A DNA stretch of 37,378 nucleotides from Promethearchaeota archaeon (GCA_019058015.1 JAHLWH010000130.1:1-37378); one strand, 5' to 3'; numbered from the stretch's first letter, positions 2 to 29,257 are shown. Numbers and translations: made by a program. Notes: a model not told the origin generated them from the sequence alone.

Positions 2-1378
2 AATTACAGTTCCATCCGTAGATGAGTTTTTTGTAAAAAGCGGTTGACCAGTAGAGCCATTATATAAGGAAACTTCTGCGTTTGGAACGATCCTTCCATC
101 CACATCTAATGTTGTGAATTTTACTTCAGCTTGCTGTTTTTGTTCTTCGTTTATATTTACATTTAATTGATAATTTTTGTACAAATTATATATTTCTGAA
201 CTAGAAAGAGTATCTTCAAAATACCTAACCTCGTCGATTTGACCATCATATAAGATACCATTTCGACCTCCATTTTCAGTACTCGCTTCAGAACCATCCC
301 CTATAAAACCAAATCTTGTAGTTCCACTACCTAAATTAAGCCCTGCGTGTGGATTATTGCCAAAACCTTTGACATCCTCAGTACCGCTATCGGGATCTAT
401 ATAAATGTACTTATCATTTCCATCATAAACTATAGCAGCAAAATGCCAATCGTTATCATTTAGTCCTGTAGTAGTGCTATAAAAATCATCTATAGAACCA
501 GTACTAGGTCTAGTTGAGTATCCTATTGCTCCGTTGTCTCCCCTAACATAAAAGTTAAAATATTCAGATCTATCATAATCAAAAAAAGCCCAATTAGAAG
601 AATAGCTACTTCCTGTATAAGTTGTTTTAAACCAGCAACTGACCGTAAGTTTATCAATTTGACCGTTGGTATTGTAGAACAAATCATTAATATATAAGTA
701 ATCGCTAGTACCATCTAAATCGAGAGAATAACTTCCGATCTTTCCAGGAACATAACCAGGACTATTTACGAGGGTCGCGTTATAATTTCCCAACGAGTCG
801 ATAGCGTTAAAGCCAGAACCTTCTTCAAATTTAAACCAAATTAACCCGGCGGGATTTTCACTTAAGAGCGTACTTGCATAATTAGCATCATTGTTTCCAT
901 AATACATAAATGTGTCATAGTCTGTTGTGCTTGCCGAGCAGTTGACTTTAAACCAGATTTTTGCATTGCCAGCCACAGGAAAATCCTGTTTAATGTAATA
1001 TTCTCTCAATATATCATTTTCCACAATCCTTACATCTTTTAAGCTTGAATTCATTTTGTTAGCATTTACCAATTCACTATAATTAATTTCTATTGAAACC
1101 GTATGATTAACTAAATCTATGGAATTAGGATTTGTAATATTGATAAGCTTTCTGTATAGGAATGAACCATTCCACCAAGGGTCAAGGCTTACTTCGCTTA
1201 AATCTAGAGTTTCAAAAAGATCAAATGAATCAAATTTATTATCAATTTGTGAATCATCGTCTACAATCTCATTATTGATATTTTCATTGCGAATATTAAT
1301 AAAAAAATTATTTAAAGGCATGAGAAGCATTGAAACAAATAAAATCGCCATTAAGATCAGTGTTTTTTTATTTTTCAT
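2..1378 (-). CDS. Secreted/cell-surface protein: signal peptide + DUF2341-like domain + LamG/concanavalin A-like domain; runs off the window start
   Basis: Manual translation from ATG 1378: MKNKKTLILMAILFVSMLLMP (signal-like), WWNGSFLYRKLINITN...DVRIV...KIWFKV...FMYYGN (DUF2341-like), WFKFEEGSG...SLDLDGTSDY...TVSCWFK...WHFAAIVYDG...GQIDEVRYF (LamG-like). Open to the window edge, so absent from the ORF track. Confidence 0.85.
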   Translation of the reverse strand, partial: MKNKKTLILMAILFVSMLLMPLNNFFINIRNENINNEIVDDDSQIDNKFDSFDLFETLDLSEVSLDPWWNGSFLYRKLINITNPNSIDLVNHTVSIEINYSELVNANKMNSSLKDVRIVENDILREYYIKQDFPVAGNAKIWFKVNCSASTTDYDTFMYYGNNDANYASTLLSENPAGLIWFKFEEGSGFNAIDSLGNYNATLVNSPGYVPGKIGSYSLDLDGTSDYLYINDLFYNTNGQIDKLTVSCWFKTTYTGSSYSSNWAFFDYDRSEYFNFYVRGDNGAIGYSTRPSTGSIDDFYSTTTGLNDNDWHFAAIVYDGNDKYIYIDPDSGTEDVKGFGNNPHAGLNLGSGTTRFGFIGDGSEASTENGGRNGILYDGQIDEVRYFEDTLSSSEIYNLYKNYQLNVNINEEQKQQAEVKFTTLDVDGRIVPNAEVSLYNGSTGQPLFTKNSSTDGTVI

Positions 1379-2700: not shown

Positions 2701-3594
2701 CTATTCTTCTTTCTTATCTTCTTTAATAATTCTGAGTAAATTAATAAGGAGATTTTTTTCTTTAGATAATTCCATTTCTAAAAATTCTTTTATCTCTTCA
2801 GTCAATATTATTGCGTTTTTTGTATCATATTTAAAAAAATAAAAGATATCTTTATCAGAGAATTTTCTCTTTGAAATTTTTTTCTTAATTTGTTTTGTTT
2901 TATTGGGATCATTTAATATTAAGATATGGTCTTTTCCAACTTTTAAGGCTGATATTAACGCAAGCCAATGATAAGATGAATTAATTGCAATACAATGATT
3001 GGGAGCTTTCTCAATATGATTTTTAATAGCTTGATATTTTAAGGTAAATCTCTCACCATTTATGTCTTTCAAATCATCATTTGTAAAATAAAAAAATCCA
3101 CTCAAATCACTTAATTCTTGAGAGAGATACTTTCCACCAAATAAACTAAAGAGAATCCTTAATTCATAATCATGTTTTATTGAATAGAGGTGATTCCTAA
3201 TAATGAAAGGATTTTCTAAACCAGTTTTAAAATAAGAATCTAATGATTTTTTTCTCAGTTCGCGATTTACAATAAAATCCGTGTCTTTCTTTTTTTTAAG
3301 TTCAGATTTAATAAGTATTTTAGAATTTTCAAGTAATTCGGGGATTTCTTTTGATAAATGATCACTTAATTTATTATTTGCGAGTGATTTTAGAAGAAAA
3401 TATTCAAGTACATACGACCATCGAAATTCTTTTTTGTTATCTTTGATATCTAATACCAGAAATTTCATTTTTTGGAAAAATCCTTCTAAAAAATTTTTTA
3501 TAGTAGTATTTTTTTCTGGATTAATCAACATTAGAAAGGTGGATAATCCACAACTATTAGGTAATTGAGAATAAAGGGGTAAATTATATGACAG
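2701..3594 (-). CDS. Putative papain-fold (C39-like) cysteine peptidase, probable CTG start
   Basis: Frame is open upstream of the listed ATG 3531 and adds LSYNLPLYSQLPNSCGLSTFL (Q-x4-CG). HWLAL and ILNDP downstream complete a Cys-His-Asp pattern. GAGGT lies 7 nt before CTG 3594. Confidence 0.6.
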   Translation of the reverse strand: MSYNLPLYSQLPNSCGLSTFLMLINPEKNTTIKNFLEGFFQKMKFLVLDIKDNKKEFRWSYVLEYFLLKSLANNKLSDHLSKEIPELLENSKILIKSELKKKKDTDFIVNRELRKKSLDSYFKTGLENPFIIRNHLYSIKHDYELRILFSLFGGKYLSQELSDLSGFFYFTNDDLKDINGERFTLKYQAIKNHIEKAPNHCIAINSSYHWLALISALKVGKDHILILNDPNKTKQIKKKISKRKFSDKDIFYFFKYDTKNAIILTEEIKEFLEMELSKEKNLLINLLRIIKEDKKEE

Positions 3595-3802: not shown

Positions 3803-3902
3803 GCAGAAGTAGTCTAGTGGTAAGGCGCCGGCCTCGAGATTCTTGAAATCGGGAAAGCCGGTGTGTGTTTCACACGCGGGGGTTCAATTCCCTCCTTCTG
3901 CG
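3803..3902 (+). tRNA. tRNA-Ser(CGA) with a 17-nt intron at 37/38 (3839-3855)
   Basis: Acceptor GCAGAAG/CTTCTGC with G73; D arm GTCT/AGGC; anticodon stem CCGGC/GCCGG with loop CT-CGA-G^A; long variable arm GTGTG/CACAC; T arm GGGGG-TTCAATT-CCCTC; BHB-like helix CTCG/CGGG with AGA and AAA bulges. No encoded CCA. Confidence 0.93.
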
Positions 3903-22079: not shown

Positions 22080-22268
22080 TTATTTTTTTTTGTTATTAAT
22101 TCTTTTGCTTAGAGTTGCTCTAAGATAAGCGGTTTTAATTTTATTTTCGAATAATCCGACCTTTTTTGCAATCGATTGGAGTAGGATTCTATTTTTTTTG
22201 CCTTTCAAGCTTTCCTTTTCCATAAATCTGTTTACAAAAGCTTCAATTGGATCTTCTTCTGAACTCAT
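22080..22268 (-). CDS. Small hypothetical protein
   Basis: 62-aa ATG ORF in an otherwise empty gap; no family recognised. Confidence 0.5.
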   Translation of the reverse strand: MSSEEDPIEAFVNRFMEKESLKGKKNRILLQSIAKKVGLFENKIKTAYLRATLSKRINNKKK

Positions 22269-22419
22269 TGTTAATTAAAAATAAATCAATAAAAATAAAT
22301 TTTATTTTTCTTTTTCTCAATTACAATTTTTATATTTAAATCAAATTTTAAAAGAAAAACAATTTACATTATTTAATTTAAAAAAAGTAAAAAACAGGTG
22401 AGTAATTAAGGGGAGTATT

Positions 22420-24393
22420 ATGGAACAAGTTCGCATTGGAGTTTATGTTTGTGAGTGAGGGGTAAATATAGGGGGTTACGTAGATTGTGAAGCATTAAGA
22501 GACTTTGCAGAAACATTACCAAATGTTACAGTGGCTAAAATTAACAAATTTACATGTTCAGATCCAGGTCAACAAATAATTAAAAATGATATTCAAGAGT
22601 TGGACTTAAAAAGAGTAGTAGTGGCGTCATGAACACCAAAAATTCACGAACCTACATACAAATCATTGTGTGCTGAGTCCGGATTAAATCCTAATTATTT
22701 TCAAATGGTAAATATAAGAGAACATTGTTCATTTGTACATCAAGATAACAAAGAAAAAGCGACTCAAAAAGCAAAAAATTTAATTCGAGCAGGAGTAAAT
22801 AGAGCACGCCTTTTAGAAACTGTGCCAATCAAGGTTTTGAGCGTTGAGAAATCAGCGTTAGTTGTAGGAGCTGGTATTGCCGGGATGCATGCTGCGTGAG
22901 ATTTAGCAAACCATGGTATTAAGGTATATCTAGTTGAAAAAGAACCAACAATAGGCGGTAGAATGGCACAGTTAGATCGAATATTTCCAACAGATGATTG
23001 CGGAATATGAGTACTAGCACCAATTATGGTTAATGCATCAAAACATCCAAATATTGAATTAATGACATACTGTGAAGTTGTCGAATTTGGTGGATTCGCT
23101 GGCAATTATGAAATAAAAATTCTCAAAAAACCAAGATATGTTGATGAAAACAAATGTACGGGATGCGGTTTATGCACCACTAAATGTCCAATAGATGTAC
23201 CAGATGAGTTTAATAGAGGAATTGGGCAGAGACATGCAATTTATATTCCATTTCCACAAGCAGTCCCGATTCTTGCTTTAATTGATAAAGAAATATGCAT
23301 TGACTGCAAGCTTTGTGAAAAAGATTGTCCTGCTGAAGCAATTGATTATGAACAACAGCCAGAATATATCGATATTAAAGTGGGGGCTGTTATAATAGCA
23401 ACTGGTTGGGATGAATATCCAATTATTGATAGTAATGAGTATGGTTATGGCATCTATCCGAATGTAATAACCCAAATAGAATTGGAAAGATTATTAAGTC
23501 CAATCGGTCCAACTTATGGTCATGTCCATAGAATTTCCGATTGTAAAACGCCTAAAAATGTTGCTATGTTTCAGTGTGTTGGATCACGGAATTTAAAAGC
23601 TAATATATATTGTTCGGGTGTTTGTTGCATGGTTGCAATGAAAAATGCCCAACTTTTAAAACAAGAATATCCAGATATGGAAATCACAATTTTTTACATT
23701 GATATTAGGGCTACCGATAAAGGGAATGAAGAGTATTATACCGCAACGAGGAATGCAGGAGTTAATTTCATAAAGAGTAATATTTCACGAGTGTATGAAG
23801 ATCCGAAAACAAAAAAATTGAAATTTTTGGTGCAAGATTCTTTAAGAGAATCATTGGGCATTCAAGAGATGGAATATGATTTAATTGTTTTATCCACCGG
23901 AATCAATCCATCAAAAGGAACAAAAGAAGCCATTGCAGTATTGGGATTGGACAAAGGACCAAATGGATTTTTATCAGAAATTCATGGATGTCTCTCACCT
24001 CAAGAGACCAATAAACGGGGGATATATATTTGTGGTTGTGCTGCAGGTCCAAAAAACATTCCATATTCCGTATCTACTGCATTAGCAGCTGCGAGTAAAG
24101 CATCAGCACTTGTATTATCAGGTAGAATAAGACAAGAATTAATGATACCGGAAGTTGATCAGAATCTATGTATGGGATGCCACCGGTGTGAAAAATCATG
24201 TTTCTATCACGCTATTAAAGTTAATGAAGATGGTGTAGCCGAAGTTGATGAATTAAATTGTAAAGGATGTGGATTGTGTGTAACAGTCTGTCCAGCTAAT
24301 GCATTAGATCTAAAATATTATAGGAATAATCAATTTAAAAGTGAAATATATGGAATCTGTGGAAATAATTATTCTATGGAGGATACAGTTTAA
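22420..24393 (+). CDS. hdrA: Heterodisulfide reductase subunit A selenoprotein (657 aa; in-frame UGA at codons 13, 71, 160 and 197)
   Basis: One continuous frame: [18 protein letters not shown]...FTCSDPGQ...VVAS*TPKIHEP...[10 protein letters not shown]...[13 protein letters not shown]...[12 protein letters not shown], joining the 455-aa ORF with ferredoxin motifs and QCVGSR/YCSGVCC. TGAs at 22456, 22630, 22897 and 23008. GGGGAG upstream; TAA stop. Confidence 0.93.
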
Positions 24394-24431
24394 ATCTAAG
24401 TAAATAATAAAAAATGAGGGGTTTAAAAAAA

Positions 24432-24857
24432 ATGGAAAGTAAAATAATAAATCATAATCCTAAAATTATTTTGTTTGCTTGCGAAAAATGAGGTTATGCA
24501 GCTGCAGATTTAACCGGAACTTGTAGAAAACAATATTCATCTGATATCTATATAATAAGAGTGAAATGTACAGGACGTGTAAGTTTGGATATAATCATAG
24601 AATCACTTCTCAATGGGGCAGATGGGGTTGCAATAATAGGTTGACATGAGCATGAGTGTGAGTTTGGAGATGGTAATATGAATACATATAAGCATATTAA
24701 ATTTTTAAAAAAACTTTTCAAACATATCGGAATATCTGAAAATAGAGTTGAATATTATTTTGTATCTGCTGCAGAGGTGGAAAATTTTCTTAATGCTACT
24801 ACTGATATAATAGAGAAACTAAAAAAATTGCCTCCTTTACCAAAAAAATCTGAATAG
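24432..24857 (+). CDS. mvhD: MvhD/VhuD/FlpD [2Fe-2S] subunit selenoprotein (141 aa; UGA at codons 20 and 71)
   Basis: MESK...PKIILFACEK*GYAAADLTG...IRVKCTGRV...GADGVAIIG*HEHECEFGDGN...GISENRV...SAAE. TGAs at 24489 and 24642 occupy the CxxC and GCH Cys positions. Missing from the ORF track. Confidence 0.93.
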
Positions 24858-24897
24858 AATGACCTTTATAAAAAAATTTTAGTTATAAAGTGACTCT
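24856..24897 (+). promoter_or_regulatory. Eukaryote-like SECIS element in the 3' UTR
   Basis: AGA-ATGAC-CTTTATAA-AAAAATTTTAG-TTATAAAG-TGAC-TCT: UGAC/UGAC non-canonical quartet with tandem G.A pairs, perfect 8-bp upper helix, unpaired A-run at the 5' side of the loop, short lower helix. Directly after the mvhD stop. Confidence 0.85.
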
Positions 24898-24950
24898 CCT
24901 TGCAAGGGATCTCGGATTATTTTATATATAAATATTTAATTTGAAGAAAA

Positions 24951-26405
24951 ATGAAAGTGCAAGAGAATATTAATAGGAATGTTTTAAATGATGCATTAAA
25001 TGTTATGAAATCATATAGATTTAGAAATCTAATTGATTCTAAGGAAGACATTTTAAATTCAGGAATATATTCAGAAGAGGAATATTACGATTTCATTTTT
25101 ACATTGTACGATGAAGACAAATTAAAATATTCTCTTTTTAATTTTTTAAAAAATAAAGAAATTGCTTCTATTAAAGATTTAAAAGAATTTAGTAAAGAAT
25201 TTAATCATGATTTAAAAAAGATCTTGAGCTTATCTTATCTTTTAAAATATGAAAATTTAATTGAAATTAAAAAAAATGAAAATACTTCAGAATTAGAATT
25301 TAATATTAAAAATAAGGATTTTATTAAAGTTAAACCAATATATGAACCTGTCAAGGTTATATTTGATTCAAAAATATGTTCTGGTTGTGGAATTTGTCAA
25401 GGAATTTGTCCTGTTGATTGTATAAAAATTGATAACGGCGTTGGTATTATTGATGATGAGAAATGTATTAGTTGCGGGTTATGTTATACAGTTTGTCCAA
25501 GGTCATACTTACCAATAGACATTTTAAACATATATATCTCTAATTCAAATAAATTTAAAAATCAATCAGATATTGGAGAATATTTGGAAGCATATTCTGC
25601 AAAAACAAAAGTTGATGAGATATCCAAAATTTGTCAAGATGGTGGAATTGCAAGTTCTATTTTACATTATTTATTTGATACCCAGCAAATTGATGGTGCA
25701 ATTGGGGCTGGTATGAGTGAAACAATTTGGAAGCCAACACCACTTTTAATTAAAAATAAAGATGATATTAAAAAAACCTCAGGTACAAAATATGCAAATA
25801 ATCCTAATTTGCAATTATTAAATCAGCATATAGATTGTGAAAACTTGGCTGTAGTTGGAACTCCATGCATGATGCAAGCATTATTAAAATCTCATATTTA
25901 TAATTTTAAAACTCCAAATATAGAAAAAGTTAAATTTAGAATTGGAATTTTTTGTATGGAAAGCTTTCCATATGAGAGTATTTTAGAAATTGTAAAAAGA
26001 TTGTCTGTAGAAATTAATGATATAAAAAAAATGGACATAAATAAAGGAAAATTTTTTATATATCCAAAAAATGGCGAGCCTAAAAATATCCCAATTAAAG
26101 AAATAACTTCATTAGCTAGAGAAGATTGCGAATATTGTTATGATTTAACATCAGAATCTGCTGATATTTCTATAGGCTCAATTGGGTCCCCAGCAGGGTG
26201 GTCGACTGTTTTAGTCAGAACAAAAGTTGGAAAGGAAATTTTTAAGGGATTAGTTGATAAAAATTATATCGAATGGAAAGATCTTCAAGATGTTCAGCCC
26301 GGCTTAAACTTATTATTAAAAATTGCTAAAATGAAAAGAAAAAATTGTACTGAACATATTAATAAGGTAAAAATGGAGAAAGAGCATATTCCTCAATATT
26401 ATTAA
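24951..26405 (+). CDS. Coenzyme F420 hydrogenase/dehydrogenase beta-subunit family protein (FrhB/FdhB-like) with ferredoxin domain and ~130-aa N-terminal extension
   Basis: CSGCGICQGICP and CISCGLCYTVCP; QDGGIAS, SGTKY, VGTPC, GIFCME, CEYCYD, ADISIGSIGSP.GWS. Confidence 0.9.
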   Translation: MKVQENINRNVLNDALNVMKSYRFRNLIDSKEDILNSGIYSEEEYYDFIFTLYDEDKLKYSLFNFLKNKEIASIKDLKEFSKEFNHDLKKILSLSYLLKYENLIEIKKNENTSELEFNIKNKDFIKVKPIYEPVKVIFDSKICSGCGICQGICPVDCIKIDNGVGIIDDEKCISCGLCYTVCPRSYLPIDILNIYISNSNKFKNQSDIGEYLEAYSAKTKVDEISKICQDGGIASSILHYLFDTQQIDGAIGAGMSETIWKPTPLLIKNKDDIKKTSGTKYANNPNLQLLNQHIDCENLAVVGTPCMMQALLKSHIYNFKTPNIEKVKFRIGIFCMESFPYESILEIVKRLSVEINDIKKMDINKGKFFIYPKNGEPKNIPIKEITSLAREDCEYCYDLTSESADISIGSIGSPAGWSTVLVRTKVGKEIFKGLVDKNYIEWKDLQDVQPGLNLLLKIAKMKRKNCTEHINKVKMEKEHIPQYY

Positions 26406-26473: not shown

Positions 26474-29257
26474 TTACTGAAGTAATATTTCCTTATCATG
26501 ATATATCATTCCAAGGAAAGAGACTAAATCCATTACTTTTAGTTTTAAATCTCTATTTTCTTGTAGATAGCAATTAAAATGAGTTAAACATTTTGGGCAC
26601 GTTACTATCAAATATTCGGCACCTGTATCAATAGCTTCATTAATCCTTTGACCTTGCAGTAGTTTTGAATAATTACTACAAGAGATATAAGCAGAAACTC
26701 CACAACAATTTGCATCTTGCCTGTTATTTATCATTTCTATCAATTCAACATTTGGGAAATTATTTAATATATCACGGGGAGCATCATAAACATTACTCAA
26801 TCTACCAAGTCTGCAGGGATCGTGATAAGTTATTTTAATTTTATCCTGATCAGAAAGTTTCAAATTATCTAATAATTTTTCTTTTTGTATATATTCGCTA
26901 ATGTGATATACTTCAAAATCATATTCATTATCATCTTTAAAAAACTCTTTATATACATACTTCCACATATAGTAGCCTTCAGCACAGCTGCATATTATGG
27001 TTTTTACTCCTACATCTTTATATAATTTTGCGTTATATTTTGCCAACTTTTCGAAAGTATCTAAATCTCCAGTCCAATAACAATCATGTCCACAACATTT
27101 CTCATCAGCTAAAACTACTGGAGTGATATTATTTAGGTTTAGAATACCAATAGTCGTTTTTGGGATTTTTAAATAATCAATATTGTTATGGTAGAGTGGA
27201 AATTGACATGTTCCATAGTAATGTTTTGATTTTTGGGAATTATTAAATGAATCATCATCTTTTTCATAAGGGATATCACAGTTAGAACAACTATTACAAT
27301 TTAAGCATCGATTTGCTTCCTGAATTGCAATTTCTTCGGTAAATTCGAGTTCAACTTCATTAAAAGAGCTACATCTTTCTTCTATTGGGATAATAGGCAG
27401 ATCATTTCTCTCTTCGAAATTAACTTCCTTTTTAGGGATTGGTGATGTTTTAAATTCTTCTCTTTTAAATCTGTTTTCACCTATATCAATCCCTCTTAGA
27501 TATCGATCAATAGAAATTGCTGCTTCATATCCATTAGCTATTGCTCTAATTGCTATTCCTTGACCCTCTGTAACATCTCCCCCAGCAAAAACACCAGGGA
27601 TATTTGTTTCTAAAGTAGAGTCATCAATTTGAATTTTATCTCTTTTACTTATTATCAACTCATTTTGAGCTGCCTTTAGGAGAGAATAATCAGCTTCTTG
27701 ACCTATTGCTAATATTAACACATCAATTTTCATTTTAAATTCAGAGCCTTCGATTTGAATAGGTCTTCTCCTTCCTGAAGAATCTGGTTCGCCAAGTTTC
27801 ATTCGTATACATTCTACTTTGGAAACATTTCCTTTTTTATCTCCAATTATTCTTACCGGATTAGTTAAGAATTGAAAATCTATATTTTCTTCGTTTGCCA
27901 TTTCAATTTCCTCTTCTGTTGCAGGCATTTCCTTTTCCGAACGTCGATAAATAACAATCACTTTTTTTGCACCTAATCTTACGGCAGTTCTTGCTGAGTC
28001 CATAGCAACATTTCCACCACCCGTTACTCCAATAATTTTATCTTTTATTATCACAGGAGATTTTTTAGATACTTGATCTGTAGGTCTGAGATCTTTGAGA
28101 AATTCTATTCCTCCTATAACATTATTCAATTCTTCACCTTCGAGTCTCATACTTCGGCTACTCTGGAGTCCTATTGATATAAAAATCGCTTTATAACCCA
28201 TATTTGTTAACTTCTTGAATGTCAAATCTGGGCCTATTGGAGTATCTGTTTTTATCTCAACTCCACTTTTTTCTATGAATTCAATTTCATAATCCAAAAT
28301 ATCATCAGGTAATCTATATTCTGGGATTCCAACTCTCAGCATACCTCCTTTAAAAGGGCTGGCTTCAAATATTGTTGGTTTATATCCTTTTTTTGCAAGA
28401 AAATATGCTGCTGTTAGACCAGCAGGTCCCGAACCAATAATAGCAACTTGTTCTTTTGTTTGTTTAAATGGTTTTAATTGACTTAAGGGTTGATTTTTTA
28501 TTTCCCAATCAGCAACAAATCTTTTTAATGCCCGGATGGCAATTGGTTTATCTATAGTATTACGATTACAATTTAATTCACATGGATGTGTGCAAATTCG
28601 CCCACATACACCTGGAAGGGGATTCTTCTCCCGTATTAAATTGAGAGATTCTTGAAATCTTCCTTCTTTAATTAATGTAATATAACTTTGAACATCAATA
28701 TTTGCAGGGCAAGCTTGTGTACACGGTGATATTCCATTCATAAATGGCAAGCAACCTATAAAATATGCTATTTCTCCTTTTTTAGCAATCTTTAAATCTG
28801 TATTGTCTAAAAAGCCAATTTTATTTACTAATTCTATTTGATCATTAGCCATTAAATGCGGTAAATTTGAATATAATCGACCATGAGTTGTACATTGAAG
28901 CTTTTCCTCTTGAAATGGGTCATTTTCTGTAGCAATAGTTCGAAGTTTTAAAATAATATCGAGAAAATTAACACCAATGTTATCTTTAGACATTGGACAA
29001 TATTCTGAACAAAGACCACAAGTTAAACAACTCCAAATATTTGAGTTATTAATTGCCTCTTCAACTGAGTAAGTAGAAAAATCTCTAACTAATTGCCTTG
29101 GATAAAACAATCCAAATGGAGAGAGAGGACATATATTAATACAACGATTGCAATCATAACAATAGTAAGAGGATTTTAACAACTCAGACATTTTTTCAAT
29201 GCCCTTATGCTCAATATTTAAACTCGTCCCTATAGAAGTTTTACTTTTAGTTTTCAT
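26474..29257 (-). CDS. HdrD-like Fe-S protein (2x[4Fe-4S] + CCG domains) with an inserted GltD/NfnB-like FAD/NAD(P) oxidoreductase module
   Basis: CYDCNRCINICP, CLTCGLCSEYCP; YFIGC; then PCTQACP, GVCGRICTHPCE..C, GSGPAG, GGGNVAMD, YRRS, FAGGD, RCLNC; then EKCCG, CAEG, YHDPCRLGR, CCG and CPKC. Confidence 0.88.
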   Translation of the reverse strand: MKTKSKTSIGTSLNIEHKGIEKMSELLKSSYYCYDCNRCINICPLSPFGLFYPRQLVRDFSTYSVEEAINNSNIWSCLTCGLCSEYCPMSKDNIGVNFLDIILKLRTIATENDPFQEEKLQCTTHGRLYSNLPHLMANDQIELVNKIGFLDNTDLKIAKKGEIAYFIGCLPFMNGISPCTQACPANIDVQSYITLIKEGRFQESLNLIREKNPLPGVCGRICTHPCELNCNRNTIDKPIAIRALKRFVADWEIKNQPLSQLKPFKQTKEQVAIIGSGPAGLTAAYFLAKKGYKPTIFEASPFKGGMLRVGIPEYRLPDDILDYEIEFIEKSGVEIKTDTPIGPDLTFKKLTNMGYKAIFISIGLQSSRSMRLEGEELNNVIGGIEFLKDLRPTDQVSKKSPVIIKDKIIGVTGGGNVAMDSARTAVRLGAKKVIVIYRRSEKEMPATEEEIEMANEENIDFQFLTNPVRIIGDKKGNVSKVECIRMKLGEPDSSGRRRPIQIEGSEFKMKIDVLILAIGQEADYSLLKAAQNELIISKRDKIQIDDSTLETNIPGVFAGGDVTEGQGIAIRAIANGYEAAISIDRYLRGIDIGENRFKREEFKTSPIPKKEVNFEERNDLPIIPIEERCSSFNEVELEFTEEIAIQEANRCLNCNSCSNCDIPYEKDDDSFNNSQKSKHYYGTCQFPLYHNNIDYLKIPKTTIGILNLNNITPVVLADEKCCGHDCYWTGDLDTFEKLAKYNAKLYKDVGVKTIICSCAEGYYMWKYVYKEFFKDDNEYDFEVYHISEYIQKEKLLDNLKLSDQDKIKITYHDPCRLGRLSNVYDAPRDILNNFPNVELIEMINNRQDANCCGVSAYISCSNYSKLLQGQRINEAIDTGAEYLIVTCPKCLTHFNCYLQENRDLKLKVMDLVSFLGMIYHDKEILLQ

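Follow-up and report, generated by a model that had tools for sequence, protein, structure and literature searches.

The hdrA–vhuD locus of this Promethearchaeota archaeon carries in-frame UGA codons in two neighboring genes and what looks like a single eukaryote-like SECIS after the second of them, and it raises the question of whether one 3' element can act on the UGAs of two cistrons, over a distance of up to 2.4 kb, and, if so, which of the UGAs it serves. The window, i.e. the whole stretch of DNA that was analyzed (37,378 nucleotides), is one entire contig of a 94% complete genome of 3.84 Mb, assembled into 283 contigs with 29% G+C.

Gene layout and in-frame UGA codons

As listed in Table 1, hdrA and vhuD (mvhD) lie on the same strand, and the distance between the two genes ranges from -8 to 38 nt, with a median of 19 nt, in 31 homologous operons. 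Neither gene ends in TGA, as the initial annotation had pointed out, and the hdrA stop is TAA or TAG in 33 of the 33 operons compared (the set is described below). An AT-rich, TATA-like stretch, read from the sequence, separates the SECIS from the FrhB/FdhB-like gene that begins at 24951, and may represent a putative promoter. A gene for a 927-aa fusion of a ferredoxin, a GltD-like flavoprotein (Fer4_20, Pyr_redox_2), and HdrB-like CCG domains follows on the opposite strand (26474–29257). HdrA-MvhD, the FrhB/FdhB-like protein, and this fusion together look like an electron-bifurcating module without methanogenesis genes. Elsewhere in the window, a 100-nt Rfam tRNA match (3803–3902, + strand, 50.2 bits), which was not called by ARAGORN, may be an intron-containing tRNA.

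Table 1. Features of the hdrA–vhuD locus, in window positions
Feature	Position	Strand	Remarks
hdrA	22420–24393	+	heterodisulfide reductase subunit A-like, 657 codons, stop TAA
hdrA, conserved predicted Sec codons	TGA 22456–58 (codon 13), 22630–32 (codon 71), 23008–10 (codon 197)	+	
hdrA, singleton TGA	22897–22899 (codon 160)	+	
hdrA–vhuD gap	24394–24431		38 nt
Shine-Dalgarno-like run GAGGGG	24416–24421	+	10 nt 5' of vhuD ATG, within the gap (read from sequence)
vhuD/mvhD	24432–24857	+	141 codons, stop TAG 24855–57
vhuD, predicted Sec codons	TGA 24489–91 (codon 20), 24642–44 (codon 71)	+	
Helix I, 5' strand AAUCUGA	24847–24853	+	in the last vhuD codons; pairs with 24912–18 in the MFE fold
AUGA, kink-turn core 5' half	24859–24862	+	invariant in 30/30 aligned elements
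Helix II and apical loop	24863–24891	+	24863–71 with 24883–91; 11-nt loop AAAAAUUUUAG at 24872–82
GA, kink-turn core 3' half	24892–24893	+	
Helix III hairpin UCCUU-GCA-AGGGA	24897–24909	+	3' (non-bulged) strand, conserved GC in loop
Helix I, 3' strand UCGGAUU	24912–24918	+	
FrhB/FdhB-like gene	24951–26405	+	two 4Fe-4S motifs; Pfam FrhB_FdhB_C 2.7e-43, FrhB_FdhB_N 3.8e-18

The genome encodes much of the Sec machinery, with tRNA-Sec (60.1 bits), EFSec/SelB (266.9), and SepSecS (484.9) all scoring above their cut-offs and a PSTK-like gene (E 1.4e-44) below its cut-off. No selenophosphate synthetase (SelD/SPS) was found over the cut-off in this 94% complete genome, where the search returned weak PurM/HypE-like matches only; a fragment on C187, located where the contig ends, does not resemble SelD. 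TGA is in ordinary use as a stop, ending 227 of the 1706 ORFs of at least 250 aa (13%), and on this stop-codon usage a global reassignment of UGA is rejected. With regard to transcription, none of the public sequencing runs contains half of the window's words. The sole run recorded as RNA (X3) gives two 151-nt contigs, both inside hdrA, and a 377-nt contig from run X1 stops at 24415, before vhuD; no RNA contig across hdrA–vhuD was found among the public runs, the sole bridging contig coming from X4, a run whose kind is not on record. A scan for bacterial-type promoters and terminators, which is not applicable to archaea, returned counts at the level of shuffled sequence.

We compared the UGA codons with solved structures and with homologous operons. 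The comparison set of 33 operons consisted of the window, the locus of the top-ranking vhuD orthologue in each of 29 related genomes, and three other Sec-type pairs of the genome under study. When HdrA was aligned with PDB entry 5odc_A (phmmer, E 1e-219), codons 13, 71, and 197 were placed opposite Cys and codon 160 opposite Leu; in VhuD, aligned with 9sw2_D (E 4e-28), codons 20 and 71 were both placed opposite Cys. Among the homologues, HdrA codon 13 is TGA in all 32 that reach this position (set of 33) and codon 197 in 33 of 33; at codon 71, 6 of the 33 HdrA homologues have TGA and 26 have Cys. VhuD codon 20 is TGA in 33 of 33; at VhuD codon 71, TGA is found in 29 and Cys in the remaining 4. 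HdrA codon 160, in contrast, is TGA in this window only, 30 of the 32 other homologues having Leu, one Ile, and one Asn at this position. Three same-genus orthologues have TTA at this codon, and base 22898 is T in contigs of relatives from runs X1 and X4. Hence, of the six UGAs that the initial annotation had the SECIS serving, five stand at conserved Sec sites, whereas the sixth, at codon 160, replaces a conserved Leu.

Because this MAG contains stray in-frame stops elsewhere, a singleton TGA in a 657-codon gene is unremarkable, and most likely the TGA at codon 160 stems from faulty assembly or from a nonsense change at strain level and is not a genuine Sec codon. The gene for SepSecS (C197:20705–22003, - strand) has one in-frame TGA ~23 codons after its ATG, which occurs in none of the 12 related genomes with a match, and no SECIS-like motif was seen 3' of the gene; this TGA, too, probably reflects a stray nonsense mutation or faulty assembly, and it bears on the trust to be placed in TGA counts for this MAG. 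Further, 1 of 37 ABC ATPase domains (C236:1132–1611, - strand) is interrupted by an in-frame TAA. Genome-wide, frame pairs of at least 100 codons that are split by one stop without a near start number 32 for TAA, 13 for TAG, and 21 for TGA; those resembling real interruptions include a histidine-kinase ATPase domain (C272) and an esterase (C42), the latter interrupted at a likely Trp. Long TAA/TAG-delimited frames with an internal TGA are too noisy, owing to antisense frames and adjacent genes, to define a selenoproteome, and their list was used solely to show in-frame stops of all three kinds.

It is conceivable, on the other hand, that all six UGAs, codon 160 included, are read as Sec, a change from TTA to TGA being tolerated since the SECIS serves any in-frame UGA. 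The remainder of hdrA is indeed intact, differing from same-genus orthologues at 36–38 synonymous and 16–26 non-synonymous codons. A second singleton is found in hdrA of a same-genus genome (G002, contig C68), where GGA has become TGA at Gly-88, a residue kept in 31 of 33 HdrA homologues, and a reporter in Methanococcus maripaludis is described as accepting Sec at several positions with one 3' SECIS (PMC9622424). Set against these points are the Leu that 30 of 32 homologues, like the solved structure, have at position 160, and the stray in-frame stops of the same MAG in genes that have no SECIS (SepSecS with its single TGA, the ABC ATPase domain, and dozens of split frames with all three stops), and we regard the reading of codon 160 as Sec as unlikely. 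The singleton, in an assembly with stray stops, implies that counts of Sec codons from MAGs need comparative support.

A single SECIS after vhuD

The initial annotation described an AUGA/GA kink-turn-type core, an 8-bp helix, and an apical A-run right after vhuD, and every one of these features is present in the sequence. Helix II consists of eight standard pairs and a basal C.U; the first pair is also non-standard in 9 of 28 distinct relatives. According to the text of Mariotti et al. (2016, Mol Biol Evol, PMC4989117), a lokiSECIS has AUGA before a 9-bp stem, an 11-nt loop whose first five bases are mostly A and whose last G usually follows an A, either GA or AA directly 3' of the stem, and a position close to the stop codon. 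The element in the window has the AUGA, the 9-position stem, the 11-nt loop with an A-rich start and AG end, and the GA, and its AUGA starts 1 nt after the vhuD stop TAG. When the 3.84-Mb genome was scanned on both strands, a strict form of the pattern (A-rich loop ending in G) accounted for 14 of 251 raw matches, i.e. ~1 per 550 kb of strand; because the strict pattern is this rare and yet falls 1 nt after the vhuD stop, its position is not due to chance.

The 9/11/9 pattern fits 30 of the 33 operons. In the alignment of these 30 elements, the AUGA, the A-run, and the final G of the loop are invariant while the stems covary, and the 3' half of the core is GA in 12 and AA in 18. Helix II cells are paired in 94.4% of cases compared with 73.5% after shuffling and 37–60% when the partners are slid, the percentage paired being inflated by the choice of alignment rows with at least 7 of 9 pairs; the compensatory changes, which this choice does not inflate, are seen on both sides in 9 of 9 pairs. 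RNAalifold recovered eight of the helix II pairs unaided. The hairpin is thus conserved among orthologues and its stem supported by covariation, a check that had been suggested at the outset. Thermodynamic stability gave no support. The MFE fold of 24850–24935 lacks the hairpin and shows no gain in stability (z -0.17), and the fold of 24843–24923, described below, does not exceed shuffled sequence in stability (z -0.18); with z-scores near zero, thermodynamics is uninformative in a genome of this G+C content.

The stop codon of vhuD lies between -22 and +5 nt from the AUGA in 30 of 30 loci and is TAG in 17, TGA in 9, and TAA in 4 of them. In six of the nine loci with TGA, the stop is the UGA of the AUGA itself, in line with the published view that a UGA adjacent to the element escapes recoding. 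We noted that, in one same-genus locus (G004:C10), an extra A in an A-run before the vhuD stop causes the frame to end at a TGA 8 nt before the AUGA instead of at the TAG.

To count the elements in each operon, we used two models: R1, a covariance model of the 30-element alignment, run with filters off, and R2, a three-helix model. R1 gave one match in the window (24851–24901, 66.4 bits), the next best scoring 14 bits, and found nothing on the + strand of 22108–24850, which covers hdrA, its leader, and the gap; both models detect this type of SECIS only. In the 32 other hdrA–vhuD loci, R1 placed one match just after vhuD in 32 of 32, scoring above 50 bits in 30 of them, and in none was there a second match above 13.4 bits. 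The two lower scores came from L054 (22 bits) and L062 (16 bits). R2 gave exactly one match in each of the 33 sources, including three loci that lay outside model building, and one match in 66 of 69 further hdrA–vhuD loci drawn from a species-representative collection; the three misses were two loci cut by contig ends and one deltaproteobacterial homologue at 29% identity. Within the genome studied here, the element lies just 3' of 4 of 4 TGA-bearing vhuD-like genes compared with 0 of 8 Cys-type ones.

Searches for SECISes of other kinds were also negative. Rfam returned no SECIS or other relevant family in the window at the gathering score or, with E up to 10, in 22200–25100, and our own pattern scan for the euryarchaeal GAA_A-type SECIS gave 0 matches in 22270–24960 and 0 in the window on both strands. 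A look-alike at 24414 in the gap, with 6 of 9 pairs and a 13-nt loop, is found only in near-identical loci of the same genus and is not scored by the models, in agreement with the earlier statement that the 38-nt gap holds no comparable hairpin. The element after vhuD accordingly stands as a eukaryote-like SECIS of the Loki type and as the sole one detected in the operon, and the separate hdrA SECIS that had been named as evidence against a shared element was seen in none of the R1, Rfam, and GAA_A searches.

Two loci depart from the common form. In L054 (G022:C1:88230–91750, match at 3118–3202), the core reads AUGC and not AUGA, the three helices are kept, R2 scores 57 bits, and vhuD has one TGA. 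L062 (C237:10100–13700) is a fourth hdrA–vhuD pair of the genome under study; its HdrA has four TGAs, one of which stands at a ferredoxin-type motif Cys (position 296 in window numbering), and its SECIS has a longer apical part and scores 16–36 bits with the models.

The same genome also holds SECIS matches near small ORFs. At C101:7000–8000 (L117), ORFs 248–670 and 661–804 precede a single SECIS at ~823: the product of the first is 140 aa long and has a Kre9/KNH Ig-like domain, a TM helix followed by a UGA, and a C-terminal GGGUG, and the second, small UGA-bearing ORF comes before the one SECIS is reached. At C213:22300–23100 (L116), ORF 221–376 (- strand) encodes 51 aa, ends in GGGUG, and lies upstream of a good lokiSECIS match. 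These small membrane-anchored UGA-bearing ORFs, of which the 140-aa TGA form was found in G000 and G002 only, are possible genus-restricted selenoproteins beyond the seven families listed for Asgard. At C134:8400–9400, ORF 186–530/665 (- strand) encodes ~114–159 aa with no Pfam family and a GCUU motif (two adjacent UGAs), and a lokiSECIS lies just downstream; a near-identical second copy of this SECIS (C134:5992–6063, - strand), 2.5 kb away, has no convincing UGA-bearing ORF before it.

Three-helix architecture of the element

The initial annotation had placed the element at 24856–24897. The upper part lies within this span, but the whole element runs from 24847 to 24918 and is larger than first described, with a closing helix (helix I) that extends into the end of vhuD and a third hairpin (helix III). 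This three-helix fold is the exact MFE structure of 24843–24923, with pair probabilities of ~0.99 for helix I (range 0.89–1.0), 0.8 for helix II, and 0.6 for helix III. Typical helix I strands among relatives are UCCGAA with UUCGGA. As shown by the model-fitted alignments, whose paired-cell percentages lean towards the model, helices I, II, and III are paired in 90%, 94%, and 88% of cells in the 33 operon sources and in 96%, 94%, and 88% in the 66 further loci. For the vhuU SECISes, which were never used for model building and of which 28 of 30 loci were matched, the corresponding values are 97.5%, 94%, and 73%. Changes on both sides were seen, in the two vhuD sets, in 4 of 6 pairs of helix I, 9 of 9 of helix II, and 4–5 of 5 of helix III, the slid controls being 27–66% paired. 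The GC in the loop of helix III is near-invariant, and in two other SECISes of the genome the stem sequence is inverted and the GC loop is kept. The fuller structure, with its three helices and a stop codon inside, offers concrete targets for mutagenesis and probing.

Helix III lies between the 3' GA and the 3' strand of helix I, opposite the loop on the bulged strand. This is the arrangement of a k-junction, described as a k-turn core to which a third helix is added, on the non-bulged strand and facing the loop (Li et al. 2023, PMC10573300), although the agreement here is one of secondary structure only. The likeness to the k-junctions described (Wang et al. 2014, PMC4005666; PMC10573300) includes the tandem G.A-type core and the 5'-strand loop, again at the level of secondary structure; the connector in the element is 3–4 nt long (CUAA/CUC), and the k-junctions reported in these sources belong to riboswitches and DUF-3268 and not to recoding signals. 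We tentatively propose that the Asgard SECIS may be a k-junction with a GC-loop hairpin on its non-bulged strand, a form common to the vhuD, vhuU, and other SECISes, while regarding this reading as less likely than not. Known k-junctions are reported to fold with metal ions and not to be folded by L7Ae (PMC10573300); if the proposal is true, it could explain how these archaea manage without an SBP2/L7Ae-type SECIS-binding protein, and helix III would become a possible point of contact with the elongation factor or the ribosome in long-range recoding across cistrons. In the running text of the literature searched, we found no description of a three-way layout of the Asgard SECIS, nor any published link between SECIS and k-junction or mention of an Asgard SECIS with the term "three-way junction." In the parts available, Huang et al. 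(2024, ISME J, PMC11227280) mention lower stems for frhA and selD and link a GA_AA pairing to the TPP riboswitch, citing the k-junction paper; we see this GA_AA pairing in 18 of the 30 aligned elements.

Proposed recoding across a cistron boundary and relation to known systems

Taken together, the comparisons of sequence make it likely that 24847–24918 is a lokiSECIS, the only SECIS of the two-gene hdrA–vhuD unit, which serves both genes. In the mechanism that we propose, hdrA and vhuD would be translated from one mRNA, and the folded 3' element, a Sec-specific elongation factor, and a putative adaptor would together allow Sec-tRNA(Sec) to read the five conserved UGAs (HdrA 13, 71, and 197; VhuD 20 and 71), which lie 217–2403 nt upstream and across the cistron boundary. 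Any UGA that stands a few nt from the element would be read as a stop. The largest of these distances, measured from the first UGA to the AUGA, bears out the earlier figure of 2.4 kb. That hdrA ends in TAA or TAG in every operon of the set would be expected if any UGA on this mRNA were read as Sec.

The proposed mechanism has two difficulties. First, the vhuD stop codon lies in the internal loop and the 5' strand of helix I is coding, so each ribosome terminating on vhuD would have to unfold the element; the melted element would then have to refold for the ribosomes upstream, and any mechanism has to accommodate this melting of its base. Second, UGA13 comes 36 nt after the start of hdrA, at a distance of 2.4 kb 5' of the SECIS. 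If transcription and translation are coupled, the first ribosomes would reach this codon before the SECIS exists, and they would presumably wait, abort, or initiate late.

This coupling problem, the 2.4-kb distance, and the cistron boundary might be taken to favor a local signal: hdrA could have a recoding signal of its own, unrecognized within its coding region or leader, with the element after vhuD serving vhuD only. The models used here and in the literature seek known SECIS shapes only, which leaves room for a signal of another kind. However, no second match was found in the 33 operons with filters off, the GAA_A and Rfam searches yielded nothing, and Mariotti et al. state in their text (PMC4989117) that RNAz found no other conserved structure; the avoidance of TGA as the hdrA stop throughout the set points the same way. 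We therefore think it quite improbable that hdrA relies on a signal of its own. That the hairpin is a transcript 3'-end or stability element only, with the UGAs read in another way such as a genome-wide code change, would suit its position at the operon end before a U-rich stretch and its unremarkable stability, but is scarcely credible given that TGA ends 13% of long ORFs, that the element is missing after the eight Cys-type vhuD paralogues, that this core and loop also occur after unrelated genes that carry UGA (e.g. vhuU), and that the AUGA, A-run, and loop G stay invariant while the stems covary.

The shared SECIS is thus the preferred reading, and, as a proposal made from sequence, it has been known since 2016. 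Mariotti et al. describe for each HdrA–VhuD pair a single lokiSECIS after VhuD, probably on a polycistronic mRNA, and give its reach as "up to six UGA codons... ~2 kb" (PMC4989117), and Huang et al. report that hdrA and frhD (vhuD) are always neighbors, with one eSECIS-like structure, across Asgard (PMC11227280). Because both papers state a shared SECIS, what the initial annotation put forward as its own inference was already in print. The modest additions made here are the codon 160 singleton and the three-helix, k-junction-like architecture. If the shared reading is true, one 3' signal acting on two cistrons over 2.4 kb would be the longest-range, and the only cross-cistron, Sec recoding known.

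Compared with the published lokiSECIS of HdrA–VhuD, nothing essential differs: the AUGA, the 9-position stem, the 11-nt loop (beginning AAAAA and ending AG), and the GA are the same, as are the site at the vhuD stop, the presence of one element per pair, the TAA or TAG at the end of hdrA, and the several HdrA Sec codons at Cys positions. The UGA at codon 160 of the window, in contrast, is not at a Cys position. The VhuD SECIS of Methanococcales and Methanopyrus, as described in the text of Mariotti et al. (PMC4989117), likewise follows vhuD, serves two UGAs separated by ~50 codons, and combines a main stem flanked by AUGA and GAC/AAC with an extra stem; it keeps, however, a GAA_A bulge and GC clamps, neither of which occurs in the element in the window. 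A lokiarchaeal SECIS tested in Methanococcus maripaludis was non-functional, as reported by Peiter et al. (2025, PMC11881835).

With the type I SECIS of eukaryotes, the element shares its 3' location, a proposed action at a distance, the AUGA_GA quartet of kink-turn type, an apical loop containing unpaired A's, and a lower helix. It differs from it in matching no Rfam family, in the extra hairpin on the 3' strand, in probably lying on a polycistronic mRNA, and in an upper helix of 9 positions that is shorter than the eukaryotic one, as the initial annotation noted and as Mariotti et al. state (PMC4989117); further, no SBP2 homologue is known in Archaea, according to the text of Peiter et al. 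(PMC11881835). Such a shared SECIS would bear on the origin of the eukaryotic SECIS, and the window adds one more putative instance of it.
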